Both the position numbers and the translations under genes were made by a program. Under the pieces are notes generated by a model. It was given only the letters and a program-made list of their open reading frames with translations, searched no databases and was not told the origin of the DNA. Positions 2,356-52,583 of a stretch of DNA of 64,000 nt are shown one piece after another. The stretch comes from an uncultured Bdellovibrionales bacterium (lineage in GTDB: Bacteria > Patescibacteriota > Minisyncoccia > Moranbacterales > UBA1568), in the NCBI GenBank assembly GCA_964398485.1, contig CAYNMD010000001.1, positions 5,072 to 69,071 on the forward strand, given 5' to 3'. Numbering within the stretch: position 1 is the stretch's first letter; every line of letters begins with the position of its first letter.

Positions 2356-3522
2356 TTATTTGATGCGGATGTATTGCATGTTACCAATATTTTTGATGAG
2401 TCCGCGCATTTCGAGTTTTGTGAGTAAGGCAGAACCCCTGGTCGTTTCTAGTCTAGAGACTTCTAACACCTTGTCAATGTGGAGCGGGTCACGTGAGAGG
2501 CAGTTAATAATTTTTTGCTCTTCTTCATTGAGATGAGTGAGTGGAGTGCTTGCTGTCTCAGCTTGAGATGGGAACGCTTCCAACTGTAGCTCATTCAAAA
2601 TATCTTGTACACCAGTGACGAGTTTGGCCCCTTGCTTCAGGAGATTGTTGGAACCAGTGGCGAGTGGTGAAAAAATTGATCCAGGGACGGCGAATACTTC
2701 CCGATTGAAATCGAGAGCGAGTCTGGCGGTGATGAGGCTGCCACTCTCTTCTTTGGCTTCGATAACCACGGTACCCAAAGTCATTCCGGCGATGATTCGA
2801 TTGCGGGCAGGAAAGGTGCCAGTCGTTGGTGGTGTTCCAGGAGCGTATTCGGAGATGAGGGTACCATGCTGCAAAATCGAATGAGCGAGACGGAGATGAC
2901 TTTGCGGAGCAAGAGAGGCATCATCAATACCACCACCGAGGATAGCGACAGTGGGCATTTCGGCCAGGAGTGCTCCTTCGTGAGCGAGAGAATCAATACC
3001 AAAAGCGAGACCCGAGATAATGGTGATGCCAGCACGTGAGAGCTCACGACTGAGTTCTTCGGCCACTTGTTTCCCATACGGCGAGTAGTCGCGTGAACCA
3101 ACGATAGCGATGCAGGGCTTTTCATTCCATTGTTTCCAGTGACCACGCAGGTAGAGGAGAGCCGGTGGACTCGGTATTTCTTGAAGGAGAATGGGGTAAT
3201 CGGGATCAGTAAAGGGGAGGAGGGTAATATCAGCTGCTGCTAGCTTTTGTTTTTCTTCCTCACAATCGATAGTGTGTCGCTTGGTGTCGATACCGGTAGG
3301 GTTAAAGCGACTGGCAAATTTTATGTCCTCCCACTCAGTTTCGCTGGCTTCCCAGGCGACTTTGGCCGATCCAAAGTGAGCCACTGCCTCTCGAAGAGTT
3401 TTGCTACCGCAGCCAGGGAGAGAATTGAGGAGATGAAAGTAAAAGGCTTCATTCATATAGAGAGAGGTCCGAAATGACCCCCATTCTAAGTGAAACAGGG
3501 TTTTCGTGCAAATGAGACACAT
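2356..3522 (-). CDS. dprA: DNA processing protein DprA (Smf)
   Basis: Rossmann-like core (IVGSRDYSPYG, GLAFGIDSLAHEGAL), N-terminal SAM-like segment (LLNSLPGCGSKTL). The true start may be the internal Met (MNEAFYF..., about 3456). Confidence 0.8.
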   Translation of the reverse strand: MCLICTKTLFHLEWGSFRTSLYMNEAFYFHLLNSLPGCGSKTLREAVAHFGSAKVAWEASETEWEDIKFASRFNPTGIDTKRHTIDCEEEKQKLAAADITLLPFTDPDYPILLQEIPSPPALLYLRGHWKQWNEKPCIAIVGSRDYSPYGKQVAEELSRELSRAGITIISGLAFGIDSLAHEGALLAEMPTVAILGGGIDDASLAPQSHLRLAHSILQHGTLISEYAPGTPPTTGTFPARNRIIAGMTLGTVVIEAKEESGSLITARLALDFNREVFAVPGSIFSPLATGSNNLLKQGAKLVTGVQDILNELQLEAFPSQAETASTPLTHLNEEEQKIINCLSRDPLHIDKVLEVSRLETTRGSALLTKLEMRGLIKNIGNMQYIRIK

Positions 3523-7822: not shown

Positions 7823-7896
7823 GGGCGATTAGCTCAGGTGGTTAGAGCGCGTCACTGATAATGACGAGGTCCCAAGTTCGAGTCTTGGATCGCCCA
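7823..7896 (+). tRNA. tRNA-Ile (anticodon GAT)
   Basis: Cloverleaf folded by hand: acceptor GGGCGAT/ATCGCCC, anticodon stem CGTCA/TGACG, loop CTGATAA, T-arm CCAAG-TTCGAGT-CTTGG; no encoded CCA. Confidence 0.85.
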
Positions 7897-7928
7897 CATC
7901 TGGAAGGCAGCGTCCAGAAAGTATATAC

Positions 7929-8002
7929 AGCGGGGTAGAGCAGTCTGGCAGCTCGTCTGGCTCATAACCAGAAGGTCGGTGGTTCAAATCCACCCCCCGC
8001 AA
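7929..8002 (+). tRNA. initiator tRNA-fMet (anticodon CAT)
   Basis: Near-identical architecture to bacterial initiator tRNA (GCGGGG..GAGCAG..CTCATAA..GGTTCAAATCC..CCCCCGCAA); 1:72 mismatch (A x A), A11:U24 in the D-stem. Confidence 0.8.
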
Positions 8003-8072
8003 CAAACTTCGCATTCAGCAGGTGACAGATACTGAGGCATCTTCTCTTGCTTGGCTAAGTTGGGTATAATTT

Positions 8073-8146
8073 GCCAGGGTAGCTCAGTTGGTTAGAGCAC
8101 GGGACTCATAAGCCCGGGGTCGAGAGTTCGAATCTCTCCCCTGGTA
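8073..8146 (+). tRNA. tRNA with CAT anticodon (elongator Met or Ile-lysidine type), atypical
   Basis: Acceptor GCCAGGG/CCCTGGT with G1.U72 wobble, D-arm GCTC-AGTTGGTTA-GAGC, loop CTCATAA, anticodon stem CGGGA/GCCCG with an A31.G39 mismatch, T-arm GAGAG-TTCGAAT-CTCTC. Confidence 0.6.
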
Positions 8147-8162
8147 CTGGGCGAAAATTGAA

Positions 8163-8226
8163 TATCACGGGGGCGTACCCACCCGAACGACTGAGAGCCG
8201 TTCAGTCGGGCGGGGCTCAGCTGGCT
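8163..8226 (+). repeat. partial duplicate of the tRNA-Asp 5' region (ATATNACGGGGGCGTA...GCTCAGCTGG) interrupted by a 37-nt hairpin-forming insert
   Basis: Direct comparison with the start of the intact tRNA-Asp at 8457-8482: about 25 nt identical if the insert CCCACCCGAACGACTGAGAGCCGTTCAGTCGGGCGGG is removed. Confidence 0.6.
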
Positions 8227-8472
8227 ATGTACACTGTTTATGTTTTACAAGATAATCGGGGAAGGTTATACAAGGGCATGACCAATAACCTGGTTCGACG
8301 ACTTGCAGAACATAAAGGGGGTACAACAAAAACTACGCGTTCTATGAAGGATCTGCGTGTTGTATACTCCGAAGAGCATCCCGACAGAGTGTCAGCAAGA
8401 AAGCGAGAGATGTATTTAAAGTCTGCTGCTGGGAGGAGGTTTTTGAAGAAAATTTTATATACGGGGGCGTAG
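8227..8472 (+). CDS. GIY-YIG nuclease superfamily protein (UPF0213/YhbQ-like)
   Basis: YTVYVLQDNRGRLYKGMTNNLVRRLAEHK GIY-YIG motif; ATG at 8227 preferred over the tool's TTG at 8158; stop codon TAG overlaps the first 10 nt of tRNA-Asp. Confidence 0.7.
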   Translation: MYTVYVLQDNRGRLYKGMTNNLVRRLAEHKGGTTKTTRSMKDLRVVYSEEHPDRVSARKREMYLKSAAGRRFLKKILYTGA

Positions 8473-8539
8473 CTCAGCTGGTTAGAGCGACTGCCTGTCA
8501 CGCAGTAGGTCGCCGGTTCGAGTCCGGTCGTCCCCGCCA
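8463..8539 (+). tRNA. tRNA-Asp (anticodon GTC), CCA encoded
   Basis: Acceptor GGGGGCG/CGTCCCC (one G.U), D-arm GCTC-AGCTGGTTA-GAGC, anticodon stem ACTGC/GCAGT, loop CTGTCAC, T-arm GCCGG-TTCGAGT-CCGGT, discriminator G + CCA. Confidence 0.85.
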
Positions 8540-8690
8540 TTCGGGATAAGCAGGTACATTAGTATCTGTTTTTCCTTTTGTAGAAGCCTCAAACACCGGT
8601 TCGAGGGTACTCTTTTTCACCATGAGACTCTCCTCACTTTTACCAATCAGTAAAAAGATTCTATACTATTAAAAACTAATAATTTCAACT

Positions 8691-9341
8691 ATGGAACATA
8701 AACAAAGAGGTGCATTATATGTTGGCTTAGGTCTAGTTCTCATCTTTGGGCTAACCCTAGCTGTTACTTTTTATCTTGATCGGACGACTCCTTCTGAGAC
8801 ATCTACTAATAGCCAGAATCTTCCTCAATCAAAAGAAGGGCCTCGAGAGAGCAATCCTTGGATGAGTTTTGATAGCAAAAAAGACACGGGTCTAGCTTTA
8901 GGCGTGCAATTCAATTATCCAGCGGCTTGGCTTCAGAATGGGAGTCGCGATAGCGGTACCGTTTCAGTTGTCCCATTTTTTGATAAAGACAAATACTCAA
9001 AGAAATGTGAGACCGTAAGTAATGGATCTGTAAACTGTCCTGAGACGGGGTTAGTGGCACAAATTATTGTAAGCAACTCCTCTTACGCTGCTCCAAAGAC
9101 TACTTACAAAGATCAGAAAAATGAAAAAATTACTATCGGTGGACAAGTGGGTGTTAAAATTTCAGGCGTAGTAAAATCAGAAAGTCTCAGCCATGTTGCT
9201 TCGGTAGGGAAAAAAGAAACTCGAGTAATTGTCATGGGATTAGACAACCAGCAATATGAGTTTGTTATGATTACTGAAAACTCTGCACAAGATGAAATTT
9301 TCAATGAAATTATCAAAACTACAACGTTTGGAAATAAGTAA
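8691..9341 (+). CDS. hypothetical secreted/membrane-anchored protein
   Basis: N-terminal TM/signal (LYVGLGLVLIFGLTLAVTFYL); Ser/Thr-rich; AT-rich relative to neighbours. Confidence 0.5.
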   Translation: MEHKQRGALYVGLGLVLIFGLTLAVTFYLDRTTPSETSTNSQNLPQSKEGPRESNPWMSFDSKKDTGLALGVQFNYPAAWLQNGSRDSGTVSVVPFFDKDKYSKKCETVSNGSVNCPETGLVAQIIVSNSSYAAPKTTYKDQKNEKITIGGQVGVKISGVVKSESLSHVASVGKKETRVIVMGLDNQQYEFVMITENSAQDEIFNEIIKTTTFGNK

Positions 9342-9347
9342 AAGAAT

Positions 9348-9380
9348 GGGGGGCGCCTAAAAATATCTCAGGCACCCCCC
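9348..9380. terminator. hairpin between convergent genes (GGGGGGCGCC-loop-GGCACCCCCC)
   Basis: 10-bp near-perfect inverted repeat; no strong U-tract on either strand. Confidence 0.35.
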
Positions 9381-9406
9381 TGTCGTCACATCTCTGCTGC
9401 CGTGGT

Positions 9407-11008
9407 TTACTGCGTGTTGGTTGAGGCGTAGTACGCGTTGCAACCGACAGCGTACTCGTTCAGCGTGAGACCTTCCATGAGTACGAGGCCTAGCTCAGCA
9501 ACCGTACTGGCGCTGCTGCCGTTGTAGGACACCTGAAAATGAAGGTGTGTACCGGTTGAACTCCCTCCGGTACTACCAACCGTTCCCAGTTGATCCCCCT
9601 GGTTCACTGCCCCAGAAGTTATGAGGCTTTGAGCTGTCATGTGGCCATAAAGAGTCTTGTAGCCATTGCCATGGTTGACCCTTACCCAATGACCGTAGCC
9701 AGATGCGTCGTAACCGTAGTCACCGGTATCGACCGTACCACTTGCCGCAGCATAGATCGGCACATTGCTCTCCGAGCCATTCTGTTGGGAATAGTCGTCG
9801 AAGTCGAGCGAATAGTATCCGCTACCCGTATGGTAGGTATCGGTACCCCCGCCACAGAACACGGTACCGCCAGCTTGAACTGTCAACAGCCAGTTCTTTC
9901 CACCAGGCAGAGGAAGTTTCATAGCCAGAAGACTGCGGACCGGCCAGACATTCCTTGACACTGATTTGTTTTCGGCTGCCTTGTGACCAGCAGCAACACC
10001 AGAGGACCATGCCTTGGTGGGCGTACCCACCACTGTGGTCGATGACCACCGCGTACTTGTTGTATTGGTGAATGGGTGCCCAGTAGTCAGAGCTGGATTC
10101 AAGTTCTCGATATCCAACAAACTTCTCAGGTCAACGATGTTGGGAAGACGCCAGTCGGTGTAACCGAAGTTGGCATTACTGCCCGTATTCATGTTGGCCA
10201 CATAGTCCAAGGCCTGTTGCCAAGTGCCGCCGGAAAGACTGGAATTCTCCGTCCACATGAGACCAGTGAATCGATCAGTCACCGTGCCATTGCCATGGTT
10301 GATGAACCGAGATACAGGCGGGGTAACGCCAACTTCTAGGTCACCGTCATCTCGGGTGGCATAGCTCGTTGACTGACCAGTCTTTTGAAGGGTTATCTTC
10401 CCTCCACTTCCTGTCCTTACTGGCCACACATACCGTGTGCCCGCCTTACTGCCCGTTGCGAGACCTCCTGTTTCAAATTGGGCAAGCCATGCACCGCCAC
10501 CTGGACTACTTGCCCAGCCCGAGAAGGTGGTGGTGGAGGTGTAGTAATAGATAGTAGATCCGGACTGAACATTCGTAAATGGATGTCCACTAGTGATTGC
10601 GGGACCTGTACTTTCATGATTCACGAGACTTAGCAACTCAACCACATTCGGGAGTCGCCAGTCGGTGTAACCGAAGTTGGCATAGGTTCCTGCATTCATG
10701 CCCGCCACATAGTCAAGCGCCTGCTGCCAAGTTTTCGTGCCTGCAGGAAGGTTGGCACTCTGTGACCACATGAGGCCAGTCATGTTGTCCGTGACCGTGC
10801 CGTTCCCATGGCTCGTGAAGCGAGGGCTTACCAAGGGGACGCCAGCCAGGGTGGCGCCGTCGTGTCCGGTACCGGCGCAAGCAATGGATGACCCATATGC
10901 GTCGTAACAGGAAGTCTGGCCGGTTCTTGGCAGTTCCACTGCCCAAGATGAGATCATCAAGCAGGCAAGAAACCAGCCGATGACAAGGGTGCCGATACGA
11001 TTTCTCAT
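9407..11008 (-). CDS. secreted protein with two DUF1566 (Lcl C-terminal-like) repeats and a C-terminal M23 peptidase domain
   Basis: Signal peptide; two copies of ...HGNGTVTD..TGLMW...GYTDWRLPN(V/I)VEL..L; C-terminus HxxxD...GSTGGSSTGTHLHFQV typical of M23/LytM; GC about 56%, higher than the genome. Confidence 0.75.
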   Translation of the reverse strand: MRNRIGTLVIGWFLACLMISSWAVELPRTGQTSCYDAYGSSIACAGTGHDGATLAGVPLVSPRFTSHGNGTVTDNMTGLMWSQSANLPAGTKTWQQALDYVAGMNAGTYANFGYTDWRLPNVVELLSLVNHESTGPAITSGHPFTNVQSGSTIYYYTSTTTFSGWASSPGGGAWLAQFETGGLATGSKAGTRYVWPVRTGSGGKITLQKTGQSTSYATRDDGDLEVGVTPPVSRFINHGNGTVTDRFTGLMWTENSSLSGGTWQQALDYVANMNTGSNANFGYTDWRLPNIVDLRSLLDIENLNPALTTGHPFTNTTSTRWSSTTVVGTPTKAWSSGVAAGHKAAENKSVSRNVWPVRSLLAMKLPLPGGKNWLLTVQAGGTVFCGGGTDTYHTGSGYYSLDFDDYSQQNGSESNVPIYAAASGTVDTGDYGYDASGYGHWVRVNHGNGYKTLYGHMTAQSLITSGAVNQGDQLGTVGSTGGSSTGTHLHFQVSYNGSSASTVAELGLVLMEGLTLNEYAVGCNAYYASTNTQ

Positions 11009-11170
11009 CGATTACTCCAAAAGTTAACAAAACCATAAAACACTAAACTGGTTAAGGTAGCTGCTCTATAGGAGGTCTCCCAAGTTGTTAATGAGCATAA
11101 TTATCCTGGTGTCTTTTGATCGTTTTGTCAATAATACAACAAATAGTATCCTTGTTATTGTACAGACAAT

Positions 11171-11186
11171 ATGTTCTAACTTCGTC
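11171..11186 (+). repeat. 16-nt direct repeat ATGTTCTAACTTCGTC (copy 1)
   Basis: Exact repeat with 11828-11843, flanking the 11204-11800 gene. Confidence 0.7.
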
Positions 11187-11203
11187 CCAGCATCCCCGCC
11201 ATT

Positions 11204-11800
11204 ATGTTTACACTTCAAAAAAGAATACTATTCGTTATCCTTTTCTTGTTTTCTACCGGGATTTTTTTATACATTCTTAACAAGGAAAGAGTTCCTCAAA
11301 ATCCAGAAAGTATCAGCGAGGAATTGCCAATAACACAATCAACAACAGATCTAGGAGACCTCTATAAAGACTGGGTGACTTATCAGAATAGGCAGTTAGG
11401 ATTTCAAACTCTTATCCCAGATAAGAGCCCTCTCACGGAAGAACTGGATGAAAACTTTATATATTTCCCCTTCGATGATAAAGAAATCCCTAGCTTAGGT
11501 AATTTTAGAAGTTCAGTCACAATTGGGATTGCTCAAGGAAATTTTATCAATCGAGGTACACGATATAACCCAAACGAAACAGCCACTAGTAAATATCTAG
11601 GTGAAATAAATGGTTTAAAGGCTTATGAAATTATCCATGAAACAGATACTGGCGAAATCGAAGGGATGTTGACTATGTTTATTGGACCTACTTTTGACTA
11701 CTACATAGACATGTCTGGTGGGGAATTTCCAAAAACATATACACCAGAGGAACAAACAGCCTATCGCATAGTAGTTAAAAACTTTAGACTTATCCCTTGA
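11204..11800 (+). CDS. hypothetical membrane-anchored protein (AT-rich gene)
   Basis: N-terminal TM (ILFVILFLFSTGIFLYIL); no recognisable domain; about 35% GC. Confidence 0.5.
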   Translation: MFTLQKRILFVILFLFSTGIFLYILNKERVPQNPESISEELPITQSTTDLGDLYKDWVTYQNRQLGFQTLIPDKSPLTEELDENFIYFPFDDKEIPSLGNFRSSVTIGIAQGNFINRGTRYNPNETATSKYLGEINGLKAYEIIHETDTGEIEGMLTMFIGPTFDYYIDMSGGEFPKTYTPEEQTAYRIVVKNFRLIP

Positions 11801-11827
11801 ATTCAAAAGATTGGGAGTTAATAAACC

Positions 11828-11843
11828 ATGTTCTAACTTCGTC
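11828..11843 (+). repeat. 16-nt direct repeat ATGTTCTAACTTCGTC (copy 2)
   Basis: Exact repeat of 11171-11186; followed by an extended -10-like TGTATAAT. Confidence 0.7.
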
Positions 11844-11902
11844 TCAACATGTCTAAAAAACTTGTATAATATACAAAGTCCAATAGTTAAAAACTCATAC
11901 GT

Positions 11903-12328
11903 ATGCCAACAATAAACCCCTACATTAACTTCAATGGTAATGCCGAAGAGGCGTTCAAGTTTTATCAATCTGTTTTTGGTGGAGAGTTTGCCGAGGTTAT
12001 CCGCTTTAAAGATATCGCGAGTGCCGAGTTTCCCGTACCTGAAAAAGAGGCGGATAAAATAATGCGTATCGCTCTTCCTATTGGTGGTAATGTTTTGATT
12101 GCTAACGATGTACCCGAAGCGATGGGACGGGTCAACGAAAACGAAAACCGCTCAAAAATTGCTGTTGTGACAGAGAGCCAAGAAGAGGCTGATAGAATCT
12201 TTAGTGGTCTTTCGGTAGGGGGAACAGTAGAAATGCCTATGACGGCAAGTCCTTGGGGAACCTCTTTTGCTATGTTCCGGGACAAGTATGGGATCGAATG
12301 GACTGTAGAATTCGCTGCCAAAAAATAA
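11903..12328 (+). CDS. VOC/glyoxalase-like protein (PhnB/YjdN-type)
   Basis: 141 aa; family-typical N-terminus (INPYINFNGNAEEAFKFYQSVFGGEF) and C-terminal EMPM...WG..FAM..D.YGIEW. Confidence 0.7.
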   Translation: MPTINPYINFNGNAEEAFKFYQSVFGGEFAEVIRFKDIASAEFPVPEKEADKIMRIALPIGGNVLIANDVPEAMGRVNENENRSKIAVVTESQEEADRIFSGLSVGGTVEMPMTASPWGTSFAMFRDKYGIEWTVEFAAKK

Positions 12329-12376
12329 TTGATGGAGCAAATGTTTCATTTGATCCCGCTTGTTTATTGCTGAAGT

Positions 12377-13114
12377 ATGCTCAAAATTATTTCTCTCAAT
12401 CTCGAACGATCGAAACACCTCCATCTCAACCTCCCATTTTTTCAACGAGAAAATCCTGATGTGCTCTGTCTCCAAGAAGTATTGGAAGCCGATATCGACC
12501 GTATCGCCCAAGAAACAGGCCTGGGGCATCATCTTTGGCTGCGGGATATATTGACCGATGCGCCGGCTAATAGCGATGGCAAAACTGGATACTCTGGCCC
12601 AGCTCTATTTGCTCGTAGTCCCTTTATTGCTTCCGGGAGCGAGTATTACTATATGCCCCAAAACGGTATTCAGCTTGAGCGAGAGTCCGAGTTTTATTCG
12701 GAGACTAACGCTCATGGTATCGTCTGGGCTACGGTGGAGAAAGGGGATGAGCAGTACACCTTGGTAACCACTCATTTTACTTGGTCAGAAGATGGTAGAG
12801 CTACTGAGAAACAAAAATCTGATTTTGAACATTTGAAAAAAATTTTGGATACGCTCCCGCCGCATATTTTGACGGGCGATCTCAATGCTCCTCGTGGTTT
12901 TGGTATATGGGAAAAATTTGTTGCTTATTATGGTAGAGACTATATCCCACAAGGAATCACCTCTACTATCGACCCCAATCTTCATCGAGTGAAAAATCTC
13001 CAGTTGGTGGTGGATGGCATATTTGCTCACCCGATGTATCATGTCGATGAAGTAGCCATGGTTGAAGGAGTGAGTGATCACAAAGCGCTCGTCGCTTCTA
13101 TCACACAGCATTGA
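12377..13114 (+). CDS. endonuclease/exonuclease/phosphatase (EEP) family protein
   Basis: LCLQEV..., GDLNAPRG, SDHKAL motifs. Confidence 0.75.
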   Translation: MLKIISLNLERSKHLHLNLPFFQRENPDVLCLQEVLEADIDRIAQETGLGHHLWLRDILTDAPANSDGKTGYSGPALFARSPFIASGSEYYYMPQNGIQLERESEFYSETNAHGIVWATVEKGDEQYTLVTTHFTWSEDGRATEKQKSDFEHLKKILDTLPPHILTGDLNAPRGFGIWEKFVAYYGRDYIPQGITSTIDPNLHRVKNLQLVVDGIFAHPMYHVDEVAMVEGVSDHKALVASITQH

Positions 13115-13149
13115 GCAGCGTAGATAATTTTTTTTGGCGGGAATGTCTG

Positions 13150-13190
13150 TATAAAAAAGAAAACGGGCACTGTTCGTTGAACAGTGCCCG
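13150..13190 (-). terminator. rho-independent terminator for the minus-strand GC-rich gene
   Basis: Perfect 12-bp stem CGGGCACTGTTC/GAACAGTGCCCG with a 4-nt loop, followed on the minus strand by a U-rich tract (plus-strand A-run 13152-13163). Confidence 0.6.
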
Positions 13191-13209
13191 GGCGGGTCAG
13201 GTGTGACCC

Positions 13210-14016
13210 TTACTTGTTGGAGCGGCGTCCGCTGCGGCGAGCGGTACCGCCGAGAGCGAACAGGGCCAGTGCGGCGAGCGACAGCGAGGCTGGCGTCGGC
13301 ACGGACGAGGTCACCGTGTTGGACCAGTGGGCCGTGTAGTCCTGGCATTTCGCACCGGCGATGCTCGTGTCACCGCAGAAGTTGTACGCCTGCATGATGG
13401 TGGCCGAGAAGCCGGTGGAGCCGTTGATGGTGTTGTCCGTGTACTTCACCACGCCGTTCACCCGGTACTCGTAGGCTGAGCCAGTGAAGCTGATCGAGAG
13501 ATCGGTCCAGGCGTCGTAGTCGATGGCCACGCCGAGGTCCACCCACGCCAAGCCTTCCCAGATGCGGAGGCGCGCGCCGCCGTCACCGTAGTTGGTGAAG
13601 CCGATGATGGGGTAGTCAGTGACGGCTGAACCATTGGTCATGACGCCCCACATGTCGGTGCGGACGTGCCCGTTCTGGGTATTGGCCCACTCCTCGGGGA
13701 TCCAGAGCGCTGCCGAGAGCACCGATCCAGCACCGCCCGAGATGGCATGTTGCTGCCCCTGGGTGTTGTAGAAGGTGCTCTGGTAGGCGGCCGGGCGGTT
13801 GCTCAGCCCATCGGCTTCGGAGATGCCGATGGCGAGGACATCGTTGCGGCCCTGGTAGGTGCCGATGTCACCGAAGCTGTGCGGGTCGTAGCGGTCCGTC
13901 ACCCAGCCCACGGGGGCGTTGTCGAAACTCGGCATCACCAGCGCCGCCTGTGCGGGGAGAATCCCCAGCAAGAGACCAGTCAAGCCGGCCAGGAAAGTCA
14001 GAAACCTCTTCGTCAT
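13210..14016 (-). CDS. secreted protein with PEP-CTERM-like C-terminal sorting signal; very GC-rich
   Basis: ATG at 14014-16 with RBS ACAGGAG (the tool's start is an upstream TTG); signal peptide ...GILPAQA; C-terminus VPTPASLSLAALALFALGG-TARRSGRRSNK (PxP motif + TM + Arg-rich tail); GC about 65% with near-saturated GC3. Confidence 0.55.
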   Translation of the reverse strand: MTKRFLTFLAGLTGLLLGILPAQAALVMPSFDNAPVGWVTDRYDPHSFGDIGTYQGRNDVLAIGISEADGLSNRPAAYQSTFYNTQGQQHAISGGAGSVLSAALWIPEEWANTQNGHVRTDMWGVMTNGSAVTDYPIIGFTNYGDGGARLRIWEGLAWVDLGVAIDYDAWTDLSISFTGSAYEYRVNGVVKYTDNTINGSTGFSATIMQAYNFCGDTSIAGAKCQDYTAHWSNTVTSSVPTPASLSLAALALFALGGTARRSGRRSNK

Positions 14017-14069
14017 GTCGCGAACTCCTGTTGTCAACGAAACACACCCACCACGGGTGCGTTCTGAGG

Positions 14070-14098
14070 AGGATAGAATATTTTTGTACTTTTGTCAA
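14070..14098 (-). promoter_or_regulatory. sigma70-like promoter (TTGACA-N17-TATCCT) for the PEP-CTERM-like gene
   Basis: Read on the minus strand: TTGACAAAAGTACAAAAATATTCTATCCT, about 50 nt upstream of the ATG. Confidence 0.4.
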
Positions 14099-14143
14099 CC
14101 AATTCTTGCGAAGAATCCTTTTTGGAAAACGAATGAGTGATCT

Positions 14144-14806
14144 CTAGATTGAAAGAAGAAGGAACATAACGATTGAGTGGAGAGTGCTCCCCAGAAGGAC
14201 AAAGACATGGAAGATCTCATGCATCCAAAAGTATCGCTTGGGAGGGAAGTGATCCTCCAGAACGAAGAAGAGAACACCAAGGGTGTAAGCAATCCCACCA
14301 CTTGCGAGGAGGATAAGCATGAGAGAAGTGAGATTCTCTCGCAGGGGTTGGAAAGCGATGAGGATCAGCCATCCCATGGCGAGATAGAGTGTCACAGAGA
14401 GGAAAGAGGGGCGTCGGAGATCAAAAAGTTTGATGCCAAAACTTACGAGCGCCAATCCCCAGATAACGCCAAAGAGTGACCAGCGCCAGCCACCATCTAG
14501 CCCAATAAAAAGAACCGGGGTATAGGTCGCTGCAATGAGAATGGAAATGAGGGCATGATCGAGTCTTTGTGCCCAGGCTTTGGTGCGAGGCCACCGTGGC
14601 GATAGGAGGTGGTAGCTGGTACTGCCGAGATAGAGGAGTATCATCCCACTGCCAAAAAGAGTGTACCCAGTGATATGCCAACCATCGAGTGAAGAGGATT
14701 GGATCAAGAGAAGAACGAGAATAGTGATAGCGCCAGCTGTTCCAACGAGATGGAGGAGTCCGCTGACAATGTCGTTGGAGCGGTCGCGAAGCGAGGTGAA
14801 TTCCAT
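14144..14806 (-). CDS. hemolysin III family channel protein (HlyIII/PAQR/YqfA)
   Basis: 7-TM protein, 220 aa, with HlyIII-family conserved His residues (YHL..., MHEIFH). Confidence 0.85.
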   Translation of the reverse strand: MEFTSLRDRSNDIVSGLLHLVGTAGAITILVLLLIQSSSLDGWHITGYTLFGSGMILLYLGSTSYHLLSPRWPRTKAWAQRLDHALISILIAATYTPVLFIGLDGGWRWSLFGVIWGLALVSFGIKLFDLRRPSFLSVTLYLAMGWLILIAFQPLRENLTSLMLILLASGGIAYTLGVLFFVLEDHFPPKRYFWMHEIFHVFVLLGSTLHSIVMFLLLSI

Positions 14807-14823
14807 ACTATGATGGAGAAAGG

Positions 14824-14897
14824 TGGACCGTATCGGATTCGAACCGATGACCCCCGCTTTGCAAAAGCGGTGCTCTAGCCAACTGAGCTAACGGCCC
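14824..14897 (-). tRNA. tRNA-Ala (anticodon TGC)
   Basis: Reverse complement GGGCCGTTAGCTCAGTTGGCTAGAGCACCGCTTTTGCAAAGCGGGGGTCATCGGTTCGAATCCGATACGGTCCA; G3.U70 Ala identity pair; anticodon loop TTTGCAA. Confidence 0.85.
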
Positions 14898-20954: not shown

Positions 20955-21004
20955 GCTTGAAAGCTGATGGTATTTGTGGTACTATCAGAACTTGTATATT
21001 TTTT

Positions 21005-23593
21005 ATGACAGAGAAGAAAAAAGGTACTAGAAAAAGCATTGAACCAATAGATGAAATTATCGTCAAAGGGGCTCGGACGCATAATCTCAAAAATATTACC
21101 GTTTCGATGCCACGTAATAAGATGGTGGTGTTTACGGGACTTTCCGGATCAGGGAAGTCATCGCTTGCTTTTGACACCATTTTTGCTGAGGGACAAAGGC
21201 GGTATGTCGAAAGTCTTTCGGCCTACGCTCGGCAATTTCTCAACACCATGCAGAAGCCAGATGTGGATGAAATTGTGGGGCTTTCGCCAGCTATTTCTAT
21301 TGATCAGAAATCAGCGAGTCGGAATCCTCGTTCTACCGTAGCTACCGTAACGGAAATATATGACTATCTGCGAGTCCTCTATGCTCGGCTCGGGCGGCCA
21401 CATTGTCTCGAATGTGGACGGGAAATTAGCAAACTCTCGAGCGAGGAGATGCTTGAGGTGGTCAAAGAAAAAGTCCATGCACTGCTTAAGGATCCCAAGA
21501 AACAAGATCTGCCGGTAATGGTCCTGGCGCCGGTGGTGCGAGGGCGTAAAGGGGAGTACTATCAAATGCTGTACCATGCGCTTGGTCGTGGGTTTACCTC
21601 TATCTATCTTGATGGAGCAAGGAAGAGTCTCCGTGAACAGGTGGTCCTCAAGAAAAATTTCAAACACAATATTGATCTCGTGGTCGACGAATTTTTGGCT
21701 CGTGATTTTAAGCAGTATCAGGCTGATACCGAAGTACGTCTCTCGGAATCAGTTCAGCGAGCACTTGAAGAGGCAGAGAATATCGTCAAAATTCGAATTG
21801 GGGAAGAAGAGTTTCTTCTCTCAGCCAAGTTTACTTGTCCGTATGATGGGTTCTCCTATCCCGAAGTAGAACCGAGACTGTTTTCTTTCAATTCTCCGTA
21901 TGGAGCCTGTCAGGCTTGTAATGGTCTTGGGACCAAGCATTTTTTTGGCGATGAGCCCTGTGAAGTATGTAATGGGACTAGACTAAGGGAAGAGGCCCAA
22001 CACATTCTTGTAGGTGGCAAGAACGTTATTGATCTTACTCGACTGACGACAGAGGCAGCCTATGACTTTTTTATTGAGCTCGATCTTACTGAACGGGAAA
22101 AACAGATTGCGGCGGTGGTCCTCCGTGAGATCGAGAGTAGACTGCAGTTCCTCCTCAATGTTGGTCTCAATTATCTCACTCTTGATCGACGTGCTAATAC
22201 GCTGTCTGGTGGTGAGGCCCAGCGCATTCGTCTCGCGAGTCAGCTTGGGTCACAACTGGTAGGAGCACTCTATGTGCTGGATGAACCAACTATTGGTCTT
22301 CATCAAAGAGATAATCAGCGACTTATCAAGACTCTCGAGGCTCTCAGGGATCTTGGTAATACGATTATTGTTGTTGAACATGATGAGGATACTATTTTTG
22401 CTTCCGACTATATCGTAGATATTGGTCCTGGGGCAGGAGTGCATGGAGGTGAGGTGGTAGTGGCGGGAGATTTGGAGACACTCCTCACTGCGAAAAAAAA
22501 TACTTCTGGTTCGCTGACACTGGCGTATCTCCGTGGTGAAGAAAAAATTCCTGTACCAGAACGGCGTACGAAGGATAAGGGGACAATTCGGATCCGGGGT
22601 GGCCGAGTTTTCAATATCAAGAATCTGAGTGTTGATGTCCCCCTGGGCCGATTTATAACCGTAACGGGAGTATCAGGATCAGGAAAATCTTCTTTCTTAT
22701 ACGAAATTCTCCATAAGAATTTACAGGCACGTTTTGATCGACGGTATAAATCCAATCGAGTGGAAAATTGCGACAGCATCACTGGGACGGAATACCTCTC
22801 ACGAGTAGTGATGATTGATCAGAGTCCGATTGGTCGCACCCCACGGTCCAATCCTGCTACTTATACCGGTGCCTTTGGCCACATTCGTGACCTGTTTGCG
22901 GCCACCGAAGAGGCAAGGGTCCGCGGCTGGAAACCAGGACGATTTTCCTTTAACCGCCCAGGGGGACGCTGTGAAACGTGTGAGGGCAATGGTTTTATAG
23001 CGGTCGAGATGCACTTTCTTCCAACGGTATATGTGCCATGTGATGTGTGTGATGGGAAGCGTTTTACCAAAGAGACACTGGAGGTGACTTACAAGGACAA
23101 GAATATTCACCAGGTGCTTGCTATGACGATCGAGGAAGCGTATCAATTTTTCTATGATATTCCAGCGATTGCCGATCGACTCAAGACACTCAATGAAGTT
23201 GGTCTCGGGTACCTTGAACTTGGTCAATCAGCGACGACACTTTCGGGTGGTGAAGCACAACGAGTAAAGATTGCGAGCGAACTCTATCGCCAGTCAACAG
23301 AACGAACGATCTATCTTTTGGATGAACCTACTATTGGTCTTCACTACGCTGATGTTCGAAAGCTCATTGAGATTCTCGATCGGTTGGTAGTTAAGGGCAA
23401 TACAGTGATGGTGATTGAGCACAATATGGATCTTATTAAGAGTGCTGATTATATTATTGATATTGGTCCAGAAGGAGGAGTGGGGGGTGGAAAGCTTGTC
23501 GCGAGTGGCACGCCTGAGGAAGTTGCTAAAGCACCTGGTTCACATACAGGGGAATATCTCAAAAAAGTGTTACGAGCGAGCCAGTCGAAATAG
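21005..23593 (+). CDS. uvrA: excinuclease ABC subunit A
   Basis: Two ABC modules ([18 protein letters not shown]; LSGGEAQR x2), zinc-finger Cys clusters, UvrB-binding-like segment ([14 protein letters not shown]); the tool ORF starts at an upstream TTG (20957), ATG at 21005 preferred. Confidence 0.9.
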
Positions 23594-31468: not shown

Positions 31469-31510
31469 GGCCGCGACCAGATCGCTTATTGAGGGTAGGG
31501 GATGATATTC

Positions 31511-31539
31511 TTGACATAAATTAGGTATTTGTGTACACT
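31511..31539 (+). promoter_or_regulatory. sigma70-like promoter TTGACA-N17-TACACT
   Basis: Sequence motif upstream of the GC-rich ORF. Confidence 0.35.
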
Positions 31540-31632
31540 TCGCAATTGTCTACGGTCAGGCATGACCAAAGAACGTGCAGAAGGGGTCCACCGGATCTCG
31601 CACGCGCCCCAACCCAATGAAGGAGGCACCCA

Positions 31633-31982
31633 TGCAACAACCTCAAGCCCAGATGACCGCCGGTGGCAAGCCCTCGCGCCGCAGCGGCCGTGGCAGCAAG
31701 CGCTTCACGATTGTCCGCAATGGCCAGAAGATCGAGGGCCTGAACGAGAGCCAGCTGCGCGGCCTGATCGACTGGGAGCACTGCGACGGCGAGCACAAGG
31801 GCGAGAAGGTCGCAAGCCTGTTCATCGGTCAGGCCGGTGACGACCAGATCGCCATCGCTCAGGGCGACGACAAGCGTGGCATCACGCTCTACAAGCCGGC
31901 CGAGGTGTTGGTCGCCATGAGCCGCCTGGACGCCCTGTGCCACAAGGTGTTCGACAAGCAGCGCGCCGCCGGCAAGATCTGA
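31633..31982 (+). CDS. hypothetical protein encoded by an extremely GC3-rich ORF (likely horizontally acquired)
   Basis: ATG at 31633 preceded by AAGGAGG; 116 aa; almost every codon ends in G/C, unlike all neighbouring genes. Confidence 0.5.
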
Positions 31983-32379
31983 TCGCTGGCGCGCCGCCGG
32001 CTACAACTGAAACTGCTCACCGCGGAACCCACGGTTGAGCCCAACCCACCCGAGCATCCAGAAAGGAGATGACTCGGGTGAATTATTTTTTAGAAAAATT
32101 TACAACAAAAAAACTGACCAAAAGCCAGTGATGATTTCTCTTATGCTGCTTGAAAAACCGAAAGCCCTCAATGCGGGAGGATGGGTCTGGATCCCCGTAA
32201 ATGAGCTTGTCGGAAAAATTCATTTTCCCGGTAAACCAGGTGGGTTCCAATTTTCGCCCTCCGTTCTGAAGGCTCTGGGGTCATTATAGCACGTTTTTAT
32301 TTCTGTCAATAGCCTGATCAAAAAATTTTGATAAATGAGGGGGCGCTCGATGCTATACTACAGTTACTCATGCTGCAAC

Positions 32380-41132: not shown

Positions 41133-43976
41133 TTGTCTTTTTTCTTAGCGCTTCCAGTCCTGCTTATGCCTACGAGTCACGGCAAAAAGAATGTCATTGA
41201 AATTCGGGGAGCTCGGGTCAATAATCTCAAAAATATCGATATCGATATCCCGCGTGATGCCTTTGTCGTCGTGACGGGACTGTCGGGATCAGGGAAATCA
41301 TCACTCGCTTTTGATACGTTGTATGCGGAGGCAAACCGACGTTACGTCGAGAGTCTCTCTTCGTATGCTCGGAATTTTATGGAGGGATACGACAAACCCG
41401 ATGTCGATTCCATCAAGAATCTCTCCCCAGCCATTTCGATCGATCAAAAAAGTGTATCGAGGAGCCCACGATCAACAGTGGGTACTATGACTGAGGTGTA
41501 TGATTACCTCCGGATTCTCTTTGCTAAAGTCGGAACCCCGTGTTGCCCAAGTTGTCACCAGATTTTGTCACGCACCTCGCCGTTAGTTATCTTGGAGCGC
41601 CTGCTTCTTTTGCCAGCAGAGTCCAATGTAGCGGTGCTGGCCGAAAACAAGCAGTGTGAAGGAAAGACACTTGGTGATATGCTCGATCTTATTTCTGATT
41701 GGGGATACGTACGAGTGTTGTGGAAGGATGAGATGTTTCTTATTAGTGAATTGAGATTGCGAGCAAATCTCAGTGAACGAGGTCCTATTGCTATTGTGGT
41801 TGATCGCTTTAATCTTGATCCAGCTCGGCCTGATAAGGAGCGCATACTGGATTCTCTTCACTCAGCTTTTCATAGCGGCGAAGGGATTTTGAAAATCCGA
41901 GTAGACGGGGAATATTGGCATACCTTTTATGAAAAGTTTCGTTGCGAAAAATGTCAGATAGAATTGCCAGAATTTACCCCGGCTCATTTTTCTTTTAATA
42001 ATCCAGAAGGCGCCTGTGGGCATTGTGGTGGCCTCGGGGTGACACTTAAGTTTGATCCGAAGCTAGTGATCCCCAACGAAAATCTTTCATTGGCCGAAGG
42101 TGCTATACGTCCCTGGAGTAAAATGAATGGCGGTCGTGGAGGCAATCATGGCCCCTATCTTATTTTGGAAGCAGTAGCTAAGCGTGAGAAGATTCCGCTC
42201 AATGTTCCAATCAAAAAACTATCAGCCAAGCAGAAACAGTTTCTACTCTATGGTGAAACAAATACCACAAAGGATGGGGTATTTACTGGAGTTATTGGGA
42301 TGCTGGAAGAAAAGTATCAAGATACCAAATCTGATCACTTACGAGGAGAAATTGAGACTTATATGTACACGGAGACTTGTCCTGATTGTCGAGGGAAACG
42401 TCTCAAACCGGCATCGTTATCAGTCTTGGTAGCTGATCAATCGATAGACCAGATTGTTGATCAAAGTGTGGAACTCCTTCTTGAGTGTTTTGATAAGCTC
42501 AAAACAAAATTGTTGACTGATGGTCACCCTCAGAATTTGGTGGATACTTTATTTCAGGAAATGGATACAAGGCTCTCGGCGGTTGATAAAGTTGGTCTGG
42601 GGTACCTGACTCTTTCTCGAGGAGCGGATACTCTTTCGGGTGGCGAGGCTCAACGAATTCGACTTTCGGTACAAATCAAGTCAGGACTTTCCGGTATCAT
42701 CTATGTTTTGGATGAGCCATCAGTAGGTCTTCATAGTCGAGATACAGATCGTCTCATTAGGGCTCTCGATGAACTTCGAGGTGCTGATAACTCGCTGGTG
42801 GTTGTTGAGCATGATGTAGCTATTATGCGTAAGGCTGACTGGATTATTGATCTAGGTCCCGGTGCTGGTAAGGAGGGTGGCGAAATAATTTTTTCTGGCC
42901 CCCCAGAGAAGCTTTTCAAATCAAAAATTCTTACCGGCGAGTACCTTTGTGGGAAGCGTTCGGTTGTTGAGCCTGCCAAACCTCGTAGTGGTAATGGAAA
43001 CAATCTTGTTATAGTAGGGGCTACTGAACATAATTTGCAGGGGGTAACAGTAGAAATTCCTCTAGCAAAATTTATTGCTGTAGCTGGTGTCTCTGGTTCT
43101 GGGAAATCAACCTTGGTCCATGATATTCTGGCTCGCGCTCTGGCAAAGCGCTTTTATCAAGCTAAAACTCCCCCGGGTGCCCATCAAGAGATTTGTGGTC
43201 TAGAACATATAGATAAGGTGATTACGGTGAATCAGGATCCGATTGGTCGTACCCCCAGATCGAATGCTGCTACGTACACAGGAGTATTCGGCCATATTCG
43301 TGAGGTGTTTGCTGATACGCCAGAGGCCAAAAAAGAACGTTATACTGCGAGTTCCTTTAGTTTTAATATGCGAGGTGGACGATGTGAGATCTGTCAGGGA
43401 GGAGGATTGAAGAAGATTGAGATGTATCTTTTGCCTGATGTCTATATTCCTTGTGAGGCATGCAGCGGAACGCGCTATAACCAAAAAACTCTCTCACTAC
43501 AGTATCGAGGAAAAAATATTGCAGAAGTTTTGAGCATGACCGTAACCGAGGCAAGGGGATTCTTTCTCGACCAACCAATGATTGAGGAAAAACTCAGAGT
43601 GCTTGAGGAGGTTGGATTAGGTTATTTGGTGCTGGGACAGAGTGCCCCAAATCTTTCTGGTGGCGAGGCTCAACGTATCAAGCTCGCTACTGAACTTGCT
43701 CGAAAATCAACTGGCAATACACTGTATATCCTTGATGAGCCTACGATCGGTCTTCACTTTGAAGATGTGCGGAGATTGCTTGAGGTCTTGAATGCATTGG
43801 TTGATCGAGGCAATACAGTCTTGGTTGTGGAGCATAATATAGATGTTATTCGAGCGGCTGACTGGGTGATTGAGATGGGTCCAGATGGCGGGTCGCGTGG
43901 TGGACAAGTCTTGTTCTCTGGTACGCCAGATAAATTGAAGAAAATAAAAAATAGCCCTACCGCCAAGTATCTCTAA
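41133..43976 (+). CDS. UvrA paralog (second full-length excinuclease ABC subunit A-like protein)
   Basis: Two ABC modules, zinc-finger cysteines, long insertion domain; divergent from the uvrA at 21005. Confidence 0.85.
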
Positions 43977-44902: not shown

Positions 44903-45002
44903 AATCAGCACGGATTATTTCTAGTAATGAAGACCTGTTTTTTAGCGACTGAAAAGTTGGTGTATACTGAGAGTAAACCAATATCAATATTCAAACGGCG
45001 TT

Positions 45003-46226
45003 ATGCCAAAGTTTTTGTATACAGCCAAACATGTTACCACGGGTGAAACCAGAGGCGGTGAAGTGATAGCTAAGGATGAGAAAGAGCTTGCTCAAGGGTT
45101 ACGATCTGAAGGGTATCTGGTGACATCAGTGGAGCAGACAGAAAAAGAAGCCGGCACTGTCCAGGTTCGTTTCATGGACCGGTTTCTTTCGGTGCCACTC
45201 AAAGAGAAAATGATTTTTGCAAGAAATCTGGCGGTTATGGTTTCGTCTGGTCTTACGGTCTCGAAATCTATTTATAATTTGAGCATCCAAACCCCGAATG
45301 CTCGTTTTAAGAAAATTCTTCAGAGTATTCACGAAGATGTTCAATCTGGGAAGCAGCTTTCTGAAGGGTTAGCTAAGTATCCTGGAGTGTTCAATGAACT
45401 GTTTGTAAACATGGTTTCTGTTGGTGAAATTTCCGGAAATCTGGAAGAAGTACTCGATATCTTGGCGCTTCAGCTTGAAAAAGAGCATGATCTTCTCTCC
45501 AAGGTGCGAGGGGCAATGACATATCCGGCAGTTATAGTAGTGGCTATGATTGGTATTGGAATTCTGATGCTTACCTATATCCTCCCAAAGATTACTCAAG
45601 TATTCGTTGATATGGATGTGGAGCTTCCCAAGACAACGCTCTTTATTATTGCAATGAGTAATTTTGTACGAGATCACTGGCTGATTACTATCGGTATCGT
45701 AGTTGGATCTGTCCTCTCAATTCGTTTTTTTGGAAAGACTGATACGGGGCGTCATTTTTTTCACTGGCTTTTCTTGAAATTGCCAGTGGTGGGTAATATC
45801 ATCATCAAGGTAAATTCAGCCCGTTTTGCCCGTATCTATAGTTCTCTTCTCAAGAGTGGTGTCTCAGTTGTGAATGCTTTGGCTATTGTGGCCAGGACGC
45901 TGGGGAATATTTATTACAAGGAGGCACTTACCGCTGGGATTGACGAAGTACAAAAGGGGACTGAACTCTCAAAGATAATTGAGAAGTACCCAAAAATTTT
46001 TCCAGTGATGGTAGCGCAAATCATTCAAGTAGGTGAGGAGACAGGGAAAACAGAAGACGTGCTCCAACGATTGGCAGAATTTTATGAAGAAGAGGTTTCT
46101 CAGATTACCAAGAATATGTCATCTATCGTGGAACCGATACTAATGCTCTTGATCGGTGGATCAGTTGGTTTTTTTGCTGTAGCGATGCTTCAGCCAATGT
46201 ATAGTGTTTTGGAAAATATCAAATAA
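45003..46226 (+). CDS. pilC: type IV pilus assembly platform protein PilC (GspF family)
   Basis: Two GspF repeats, 3 TM; family-typical motifs. Confidence 0.9.
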   Translation: MPKFLYTAKHVTTGETRGGEVIAKDEKELAQGLRSEGYLVTSVEQTEKEAGTVQVRFMDRFLSVPLKEKMIFARNLAVMVSSGLTVSKSIYNLSIQTPNARFKKILQSIHEDVQSGKQLSEGLAKYPGVFNELFVNMVSVGEISGNLEEVLDILALQLEKEHDLLSKVRGAMTYPAVIVVAMIGIGILMLTYILPKITQVFVDMDVELPKTTLFIIAMSNFVRDHWLITIGIVVGSVLSIRFFGKTDTGRHFFHWLFLKLPVVGNIIIKVNSARFARIYSSLLKSGVSVVNALAIVARTLGNIYYKEALTAGIDEVQKGTELSKIIEKYPKIFPVMVAQIIQVGEETGKTEDVLQRLAEFYEEEVSQITKNMSSIVEPILMLLIGGSVGFFAVAMLQPMYSVLENIK

Positions 46227-47640: not shown

Positions 47641-47653
47641 TCAAAAAATACCT

Positions 47654-48265: not shown

Positions 48266-48274
48266 TGTATTTGT

Positions 48275-49696: not shown

Positions 49697-49776
49697 TGTT
49701 GTTTGATAAATGTTTGTAGCCAGGTGTGTTATTATAGTAAAGAAGAAAAAATAGAAAGCAAAAACAAACGCTCGGT

Positions 49777-51415: not shown

Positions 51416-51420
51416 GATGT

Positions 51421-52197: not shown

Positions 52198-52209
52198 CTT
52201 CATTGCAGT

Positions 52210-52533: not shown

Positions 52534-52583
52534 TCAGGCAATAATTATTGACAAAATACTACAAGTCTGGTATTTTGACATTT

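Follow-up and report, generated by a model that had tools for sequence, protein, structure and literature searches.

A tRNA-Asp-linked genomic island built of stacked gene modules in a Moranbacteria contig

In a 64,000-nucleotide (nt) stretch of DNA from an uncultured bacterium (GenBank assembly GCA_964398485.1, contig CAYNMD010000001.1, forward-strand positions 5,072 to 69,071; this whole stretch is called the window below), the segment from 7823 to 14897 combines five tRNA genes with protein genes of very uneven composition. A sequence-only reading had presented this segment as a mosaic of horizontally acquired genes bracketed by tRNA genes. Our analysis indicates that the 3' end of the tRNA-Asp(GUC) gene is probably a site-specific integration hotspot behind which modules lacking a recombinase are stacked, with a serine recombinase as the most likely enzyme. 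The locus is a hotspot at which attachment-site (att) relics, cargo replacement, filled and empty sites, module mobility, foreign composition and the decay of some of the cargo are observed. The closest named homologues of the UvrB protein belong to Candidatus Moranbacteria/Moraniibacteriota (91, 80 and 74% identity), which places the host in the Candidate Phyla Radiation/Patescibacteria; its genome has a GC content of about 46%.

The window was compared with diverged relatives of the locus, which share with it 96.6% (L003/L004), 91% (L005), 88-92% (L008) and 89-97% (L006/L009) nucleotide identity, and also with L010. As L006 and L009 show the same alignment coordinates and the same identity to the window, they apparently represent one lineage. 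L006 was also the only close relative recovered when the EEP gene of the segment was used as query against the genome collection. The more distant loci L013 and L015 do not span the hotspot, their contigs ending at the locus.

In every related locus, homology is interrupted right after the last bases of the tRNA-Asp gene (8463-8539, + strand; ...TCCCCGC), that is, directly at the tRNA 3' end, and position 8539 is the predicted attachment point of the hotspot. On the other side, the tRNA-Ala(UGC) gene (14822-14897, - strand), the gene of an HlyIII/TrhA-family membrane protein (14144-14806, - strand; Pfam, and NCBIfam TrhA at 2e-55), a 134-amino-acid (aa) gene, a VTT/DedA gene and the UvrB gene are syntenic in all close relatives, the HlyIII and tRNA-Ala pair being found in L003-L006, L008, L009, L013 and L014. 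The ratio of non-synonymous to synonymous substitution rates (dN/dS) of these core flank genes is 0.02-0.11 (0.05-0.11 for HlyIII), indicating strong purifying selection. Because the flank genes are syntenic and under purifying selection in close relatives, the variable region is anchored on tRNA-Asp, tRNA-Ala being merely the next core gene; HlyIII and tRNA-Ala thus form a conserved core flank outside the island. The variable region proper extends from 8540 to about 11850, and at most to 14128. The proposal that tRNA genes bracket the segment does not hold in a mechanistic sense, as all activity is located at the 3' end of tRNA-Asp.

The 16-bp direct repeats reported earlier around one AT-rich gene do exist: they are exact at 11171-11186 and 11828-11843, and extend to 23 nt at 91% identity. 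They are not a target duplication made by that single gene, being part of att relics that accompany unrelated cassettes in several genomes. These relics, 23-31 nt long, follow a common pattern in which a conserved element arm, GTTCTnACTTCG, is followed by a copy of the local tRNA 3' end. In att relic 1 (11171-11201, + strand; ATGTTCTAACTTCGTCCCAGCATCCCCGCCA), the element arm is joined to a tRNA-Asp-like acceptor end. When the next two bases (TT) are included, the last 11 nt (TCCCCGCCATT, 11193-11203) are identical to positions 8531-8541, which comprise the tRNA-Asp 3' end and the bases downstream of it, and a longer match covers 20 nt at 80% identity. The arm of this relic was also found in L003 and in L012, the latter being the one additional locus recovered when metagenomes were queried with the arm. 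Att relic 2 (11828-11850, + strand; ATGTTCTAACTTCGTCTCAACAT) is degenerate, with the arm kept and the tRNA-end core lost, and it marks a start or end point of the homology with L003 and L006. Additional tRNA-Asp 3' fragments were detected in the window (8596-8605), L005, L008 and L016, and in L016 the tRNA-Asp end and its terminator are duplicated 170 nt downstream. Two kinds of relic are present, namely the GTTCTAACTTCG... arm and the near-exact tRNA-Asp 3' fragments. The fragment at 8596-8605 corresponds to the tRNA-Asp T-arm (CCGGTTCGAG; 2 matches versus 0.07 expected) and lies, together with a terminator-like hairpin (8548-8571), in a spacer (8540-8636, + strand) which is probably the remnant, about 100 bp long, of an earlier insertion.

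Att relic 1 closes module A (8637-11203, genes on both strands), which is 78% identical over its whole span to a unit present in L010. In the latter locus the module has other neighbours (AAA_14/DUF4143, YkuD, tRNA-Ser and tRNA-Arg) and is located behind tRNA-Ser. The arm closing this copy reads AAGTTCTCACTTCG+TCTCACCTCCTCCGCC, and its last 16 nt are exactly the last 16 nt of a tRNA-Ser(UGA) gene situated 3.55 kb upstream in the same orientation. Both in the window (TCCCCGCCATT) and in L010, the module is therefore bounded by a directly repeated tRNA 3' end. Since the L010 arm ends in a copy of tRNA-Ser and the window arm in a copy of tRNA-Asp, the relic is a conserved part of the element joined to the 3' end of the particular tRNA gene that had served. 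Elements that integrate site-specifically into tRNA genes classically leave such a footprint. These alignments show module A to be a mobile two-gene unit that has moved between two tRNA loci.

Module A contains a promoter-like site (8639-8667) upstream of the gene of a 216-aa N-terminally anchored protein (8691-9341, + strand), a bidirectional terminator (9348-9380) and, on the - strand, the gene of a 533-aa protein in which Pfam recognises an M23 peptidase domain in addition to a pair of Lcl_C (DUF1566) domains (9407-11008). The catalytic M23 domain is present (PF01551, 3e-20; the two Lcl_C domains at 6e-54), and NCBIfam peptidoglycan hydrolase models match this protein below their equivalog cut-offs. 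Module B (11204-11827, + strand, or up to 11850 with att relic 2) consists of a single gene with a GC content of 0.36 (11204-11800), encoding a 198-aa N-terminally anchored protein. The 216-aa and 198-aa proteins have no detectable kinship to each other and no match in Pfam, NCBIfam or PADLOC; the single-sequence structure model of the 216-aa protein had a predicted local distance difference test (pLDDT) score of 39 and was unusable. Promoter and terminator counts across the region were not above shuffled expectation, so that the individual sites are suggestive only.

As had been noted earlier, the segment contains no integrase or recombinase: no Pfam recombinase match was found among the island genes, and a tblastn search with the serine recombinase of L008 was empty over the 64 kb. 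Yet this relative carries such a gene at the same site. Whereas no integrase adjoins a tRNA gene and no large serine recombinase is encoded in the window, L008 contains an element of about 6 kb lying exactly between the tRNA-Asp end (...CCCCGC) and the arm ATGTTCTAACTTCGTCCCAGCATCCCCGC. The far end of this element is formed by the same 31 nt as att relic 1, without a single difference between L008 and the window (100% identity), although their backbones are only 88-92% identical. The element encodes a 499-aa large serine recombinase (PF00239, 2e-23; PF07508, 3e-18; a weak match to the PF13408 Zn ribbon), the gene of which overlaps tRNA-Asp with its 3' end. The best NCBIfam matches of the recombinase are CcrA, CcrB and XisF, all below the cut-offs. 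A rolling-circle Rep of the HUH type (REP_ORF2-G2P), a helix-turn-helix protein and a DUF2726 protein are encoded by its further genes. After the arm, L008 continues with AAAATCAAGAACCCGG..., that is, AAAATCAAGAACCCGGCCC..GTGGTCGGG, which in L005 directly follows tRNA-Asp; L005 is for this reason the empty site of the L008 element. An attL/attR pair and a matching empty attB are thus found for the L008 element relative to L005. Module A of the window has such an arrangement only in analogy to L008, with which it has the 31-nt arm in common.

Comparison of the relatives also revealed that unrelated cargo occupies the same slots. When the window is followed from the tRNA-Ala side, homology with L003 stops at 11828 and returns only at the 34 nt of the att relic (11168-11201) and at the tRNA-Asp 3' end. 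Between tRNA-Asp and these 34 nt, L003 carries a 47-aa open reading frame (ORF) and a 582-aa AriA/OLD-like ATPase gene (PADLOC AriA, 7e-15), not the 216-aa and M23 pair. In the slot between the two repeats, an unrelated 192-aa gene with 58% GC is found in L003 versus the 198-aa gene with 36% GC in the window; L008 has the gene of L003 in the same slot (84% aa identity). In L005, a histidine phosphatase gene and two further genes of no assigned function lie between EEP and tRNA-Asp. Outward of module B, the window contains a VOC/PhnB-like gene (11903-12328, + strand) and the EEP gene (12377-13114, + strand), both identified by Pfam. These two genes are absent from L008 and L013 and kept in some other relatives; in L013, a HAD hydrolase gene adjoins HlyIII. 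We propose that VOC and EEP are older, ameliorated genes, or native ones. In L006 (621-1376) and L009 (6853-7591), EEP appears disrupted into 153-aa and 64-aa fragments with a high apparent dN, which suggests that EEP is decaying in this lineage, where the GC-rich cassette described below is missing.

The strong swings in GC content claimed for the segment (about 35-65%) were borne out by all three measures applied. The GC content of 300-nt windows ranges from 0.33 to 0.66, and the nine 1-kb windows that deviate most in tetranucleotide distance over the 64 kb all fall inside 9251-14500 (z up to 9.5). The GC content at third codon positions (GC3) is 0.425 ± 0.064 in backbone genes, compared with 0.30 for both the 216-aa and the 198-aa genes, 0.57 for the M23 peptidase gene, 0.56 for HlyIII and 0.85-0.86 (z = 6.6) for a PEP-CTERM-like gene. 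VOC (0.41) and EEP (0.42) are backbone-like, also in their tetranucleotide profile. The segment unites an atypical composition with a patchy distribution among relatives, and it was indeed built by horizontal acquisitions beside tRNA genes. However, not every swing in GC content is an acquisition of its own, as the 216-aa and M23 genes travel jointly. Because the contrast inside module A is the same in L010 (0.37 versus 0.53), it was imported as such; a marked GC contrast within an island need not imply separate acquisitions.

The GC-rich gene belongs to a self-contained cassette of about 1 kb located between EEP and HlyIII (13125-14128, - strand). It comprises a promoter-like site (TTGACA-17-TATCCT, 14098-14070, - strand), an ORF of 268 aa (14016-13210, - strand) with a signal peptide, a concanavalin A (ConA)-like jelly roll and a VPTP...RR C-terminal anchor, and a strong intrinsic terminator (13190-13164, - strand). 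A 275-aa product starting at TTG was rejected, as an exact look-up found nothing and the product actually called starts at ATG and has 268 aa. Just upstream of the gene start, a stem-loop, CACCCnTGnTGGGTGTGTTT, is conserved between the window (14030-14060, - strand) and L016 (about 7930-7960); it has no Rfam match and could be a cis-regulatory element travelling with the cassette.

In L006/L009 this site is empty: the stop codon of HlyIII lies within about 25 bp of that of EEP, and the sequence corresponding to about 13125-14128 is absent. The GC-rich gene was detected in four relatives; it occupies the same slot in L003, L005 and L008, with a GC3 of 0.85-0.87 in L003 and L005 and in four lineages altogether, the window included. 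Relatives showing the same genes with the same composition had been named beforehand as an outcome that would speak against an island, and for the GC-rich gene this is what was found; it is still an insertion, because L006/L009, apparently a single lineage, display a clean empty site. The aa identity of the GC-rich protein is 94% and 82%, versus 98% and 95% for EEP, and the dN/dS of its gene is 0.31-0.52 versus 0.02-0.11 for the neighbours. In L008 a TGG to TGA nonsense change has turned it into a pseudogene. These figures point to a weakly constrained gene. L016, the UvrB of which is 73% identical, carries a 66%-identical homologue (GC3 0.77) about 450 bp from the tRNA-Asp 3' end, in the same orientation, with the same 5' hairpin and a terminator showing compensatory changes. 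Since the GC-rich gene outpaces UvrB divergence among close relatives and is yet 66% identical in L016, the cassette may have spread between Moranbacteria lineages rather than by strict vertical descent. A gene with a GC3 of 0.86 can thus be retained from one species to the next within a genome of 46% GC.

The GC-rich protein belongs to a large family, whose members at 55-67% identity have PF07589 together with a canonical VPEP...RR C-terminus. Two of these homologues bear source names, those of an alphaproteobacterial metagenome-assembled genome (MAG) and of Fundidesulfovibrio. In the window protein and its closest clade the motif is VPTPASL...RR (VPTPASL...RRSGRR in the window), not VPEP; PF07589 does not recognise this clade, and was not detected in the window protein at E <= 0.01. 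The C-terminal transmembrane helix and basic tail are present. We propose a surface-anchored, ConA-like protein whose sequence would betray a proteobacterial PEP-CTERM ancestry. An AlphaFold model built on 42 homologues (pLDDT 87) shows a ConA-like beta jelly roll between a signal helix and a C-terminal helix, and the best Foldseek matches in the PDB are GH16 glucanases and galectins (TM-scores 0.45-0.58). Its identification as a GH16 enzyme was set aside, as no ExDxxE motif was spotted by eye, and the model makes a glycan-binding surface protein, not an enzyme, probable. An inverted att-like core, TTCCCGCCA, beside the cassette terminator was considered and not relied on, since it could be due to chance.

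The following scheme probably accounts for the locus. Mobile elements would insert right after the tRNA-Asp end (...TCCCCGC), each insertion leaving at its far end a relic made of the GTTCTnACTTCG... arm and a copy of the tRNA 3' end. Newcomers would push older insertions outward and give rise to a tandem stack, which in the window would read, from tRNA-Asp, as the remnant of about 100 bp, module A, module B, then the older VOC and EEP genes. The large serine recombinase of intact family members would be the catalyst, acting in cis on arrival and possibly in trans on relics, and the modules of the window would have arrived by its action. Deletions would then strip the recombinase and Rep genes, leaving remnants of one or two genes. 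Alleles of the stack would be shuffled between strains by homologous recombination in the conserved flanks, with the competence and pilus genes of the window assisting. The order of these events is our reconstruction.

Several observations weigh against this scheme. As the 64-kb window lacks a recombinase, current mobility of its modules is without support, and the link between the serine recombinase and the relics rests on the single locus L008. The L008 recombinase had no relatives among the viral contigs scanned, so that the family of elements is poorly sampled. Att relic 2 is devoid of a tRNA-like core, and no convincing att relic was found at the borders of the GC-rich cassette. Finally, it is tyrosine integrases that classically leave long direct repeats derived from the tRNA, whereas a serine recombinase normally leaves no more than a 2-bp core. 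The tRNA identities of 11-16 nt are unusual for serine recombinases, and the enzyme is the main uncertainty.

The last point could be met by assuming that elements with a tyrosine integrase, since lost, made the tRNA-derived repeats, and that the serine element of L008 is a passenger sharing the site. Exact identities of 11-16 nt with a tRNA 3' end are typical of attL/attR, and the two kinds of relic suggest more than one element family. No tyrosine integrase, however, was seen in any fetched locus; the only complete element ends in exactly the arm of module A, and its sole recombinase is a serine recombinase, which makes this explanation rather improbable. Alternatively, homologous recombination in the flanks might suffice, DNA acquired by natural transformation replacing alleles between the tRNA array and the HlyIII/UvrB flank, and the repeats being old relics. 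The mosaic identity of L006 (97% over VOC and EEP but 89% from HlyIII to UvrA), the homology breakpoints falling on conserved short sequences, the DprA and type IV pilus genes of the window and its lack of a recombinase all agree with such exchanges. They leave unexplained the precise first arrival of cargo at the tRNA end, the 16-nt tRNA-Ser duplication in L010, the intact recombinase element with its matching empty site and the conservation of the 31-nt arm above the backbone. Flank recombination is thus unlikely to be the only process, and is most likely complementary to integration at tRNA-Asp rather than an alternative to it.

Two further explanations concern the composition of the segment. 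An assembly chimera of reads from high-GC and low-GC organisms, an alternative raised by the sequence-only reading, would fit the abrupt GC steps, the metagenomic source and the relatives' contigs that often end near the locus. However, the ENA contig k141_25478 (146 kb) and a Logan contig of SRR6837583, which are independent assemblies made with different assemblers, have the same structure: the former shows the same order and, over 20.6 kb, a single mismatch, which falls at window position 4849 and not in the island, and the latter is identical to the window. Individual island junctions also recur in L003/L004, L005, L008, L006/L009 and L010, all from other samples; in three diverged relatives the GC-rich gene has the neighbours that it has in the window, L010 carries module A as a unit, and contigs break exactly at the tRNA end, as strain variation at a hotspot would give. 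Because the junctions recur in independent assemblies or diverged relatives, a chimera is excluded and the segment is a real structure; that the composition jump is genuine is relevant to genome curation. It is also very improbable that the region is native and ancient, with a heterogeneity due to amino-acid composition or local mutation bias. VOC, EEP and HlyIII are indeed backbone-like or syntenic, and the GC-rich gene holds its composition across relatives. On the other hand, a GC3 of 0.86 versus 0.43 cannot stem from protein composition, and the clean presence/absence polymorphisms, the unrelated cargo in the same slots and the source-named homologues from Proteobacteria, Nitrospirae and related groups argue against a native origin.

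Contig ends themselves were informative. Two independent Logan contigs, L002 and L003, stop 31-32 nt short of the tRNA-Asp 3' end (window 8508-8539), that is, one k-mer before the point of divergence, which would fit co-existing variants downstream of tRNA-Asp in those samples. In de Bruijn assemblies, contig ends such as those at the locus (L002, L003, L013 and L015) are a useful mark of hotspots that vary between strains.

Upstream of the hotspot, the genes of tRNA-Ile(GAU) (7823-7897), tRNA-Met(CAU) (7929-8003) and a second tRNA-Met(CAU) (8073-8147) form an array on the + strand, which is also found in L005, L008 and the distant L016. ARAGORN and Rfam agree on all five tRNA genes at the coordinates given earlier, and the Rfam scan of the region returned tRNAs only and no other RNA. 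The protein genes listed at that time (216-aa, DUF1566-M23, 198-aa, VOC, EEP, GC-rich gene and HlyIII) were likewise confirmed with Pfam; the list had overlooked a GIY-YIG nuclease gene (ATG at 8228, stop at 8472, + strand; Pfam GIY-YIG, 6e-12). This gene lies between tRNA-Met and tRNA-Asp, with its stop codon inside the first bases of tRNA-Asp. Upstream of its ATG, the first 22 nt of tRNA-Asp are present as a split pseudo-copy, which consists of ACGGGGGCGTA (8168-8178), a 37-nt hairpin and GCTCAGCTGGcTA (8215-8227). It looks as if a small nuclease cassette had inserted into the 5' part of the tRNA-Asp gene, bringing a replacement 5' end. The array itself varies: in L005 a second GIY-YIG gene, 41% identical, overlaps tRNA-Met with its end (L005 8936-9244 and 9444-9710), and in L016 the slot before tRNA-Asp (9361-9708) contains an unrelated 115-aa ORF with no Pfam match.

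Other features of the window were observed outside the segment. A second GC spike at 31500-32000 (GC about 0.63, tetranucleotide z = 3.4-3.6) has ORFs overlapping on opposite strands (31575-31982, + strand; 31521-31943, - strand) with no Pfam or Rfam match, and might represent a further foreign cassette of small size. A type IV pilus/pseudopilin cluster (PilC-like, PilM/N/O-like and large pseudopilins) occupies a lower-GC block (40-42%) at 45000-55000. Together with DprA (2356-3522), it would fit a natural-competence apparatus, these functions having been read by eye from the translations. Two UvrA paralogues (20957-23593 and 41133-43976) are present in 64 kb of a reduced genome, in addition to UvrB and UvrC. 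Among the relatives, the L006 contig (CAZRXW010000039.1), 89-97% identical to the window, sits in a MAG labelled 'uncultured Bdellovibrionales', and a UvrB that is 83% identical (protein P0315) is labelled 'Undibacterium sp.'; both are probably contigs of the Candidate Phyla Radiation (CPR) mis-binned in public MAGs.

Members of the CPR, or Patescibacteria, combine very small genomes with a presumed dependence on host bacteria. Little is resolved about the routes by which surface proteins, cell-wall hydrolases and defence genes reach them and, to our knowledge, published surveys of Patescibacteria islands list these by composition only. The locus offers a sequence-resolved example, with a named site, recognisable att relics, an intact candidate vehicle carrying a serine recombinase and Rep, and several alternative cargos. 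With it, other CPR genomes can be searched and the specificity of the recombinase probed.

Of the known systems, integron arrays resemble the locus in their small cassettes, ordered from promoter-proximal to distal and each closed by a conserved recombination-site relic, and in the exchange of unrelated cargo slot by slot. In contrast to integrons, no IntI tyrosine recombinase, attI or Pc was found here, and the cassettes bring their own promoter-like and terminator sequences. The arms do not qualify as attC sites either, as they form no attC-like hairpins and have no significant fold (z = -0.9, -0.9 and +1.8). One might still imagine that the 12-17-nt arm (GTTCTnACTTCG[TCTCA]) with the tRNA 3' end is the portable recombination site of an uncharacterised cassette system of Moranbacteria and related CPR, in which the serine recombinase of a small Rep-bearing element captures, stacks and exchanges cassettes of one or two genes behind different tRNA genes. 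This possibility, which rests on few loci (tRNA-Asp here, tRNA-Ser in L010), is a doubtful one; if true, it would be an integron-like system with a serine recombinase and tRNA-end docking, its cargo including surface proteins, cell-wall hydrolases and defence ATPases.

The SCCmec and composite or pseudo-SCC islands of staphylococci integrate at the 3' end of a gene (rlmH/orfX) by means of serine recombinases, the ccrAB pair. They share with the present locus a large serine recombinase (in L008, with CcrA/CcrB as best NCBIfam matches below the cut-offs), the 3' end of a conserved gene as target, short direct repeats bounding the units, and tandem arrays that include units without a recombinase. 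Unlike SCCmec, the target is a tRNA gene instead of rlmH/orfX, a single recombinase replaces the ccrAB pair and a rolling-circle Rep is carried; moreover, the L008 recombinase scores far below the Ccr equivalog cut-offs and is not a Ccr orthologue.

A full-text literature search combining serine recombinase, tRNA and Patescibacteria returned nothing relevant. Genomic islands of Patescibacteria have been predicted in bulk with IslandViewer, horizontal gene transfer occurring mostly among Patescibacteria with some donors among other groundwater bacteria (PMC12455944); the text of that study nowhere mentions tRNA, integrase or recombinase. Those islands come from the same phylum-level host group and were defined by composition, whereas here the site, the relics and an intact element are resolved.

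The closest resemblance is to the classical islands linked to tRNA genes and showing tandem accretion, tRNA-gene islands being known in Enterobacteria, and to the cis-mobilizable elements (CIMEs) reportedly found beside integrative and conjugative elements (ICEs) in work on ICESt1 of Streptococcus thermophilus. Insertion at a tRNA 3' end, tRNA-derived direct repeats, atypical composition and presence or absence among relatives are common to all of them, and tandem att-flanked modules without a recombinase of their own are a feature shared with CIMEs beside ICEs. The present locus differs in that the sole recombinase seen at the site, that of a relative, is of the large serine type instead of a tyrosine integrase, in its tiny modules of one or two genes, in its CPR/Patescibacteria host, and in relics that are hybrids of a non-tRNA arm and a tRNA end, not plain tRNA duplications. 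With these particularities, it represents a genuine, if rather ordinary, genomic island linked to a tRNA gene and showing tandem accretion.

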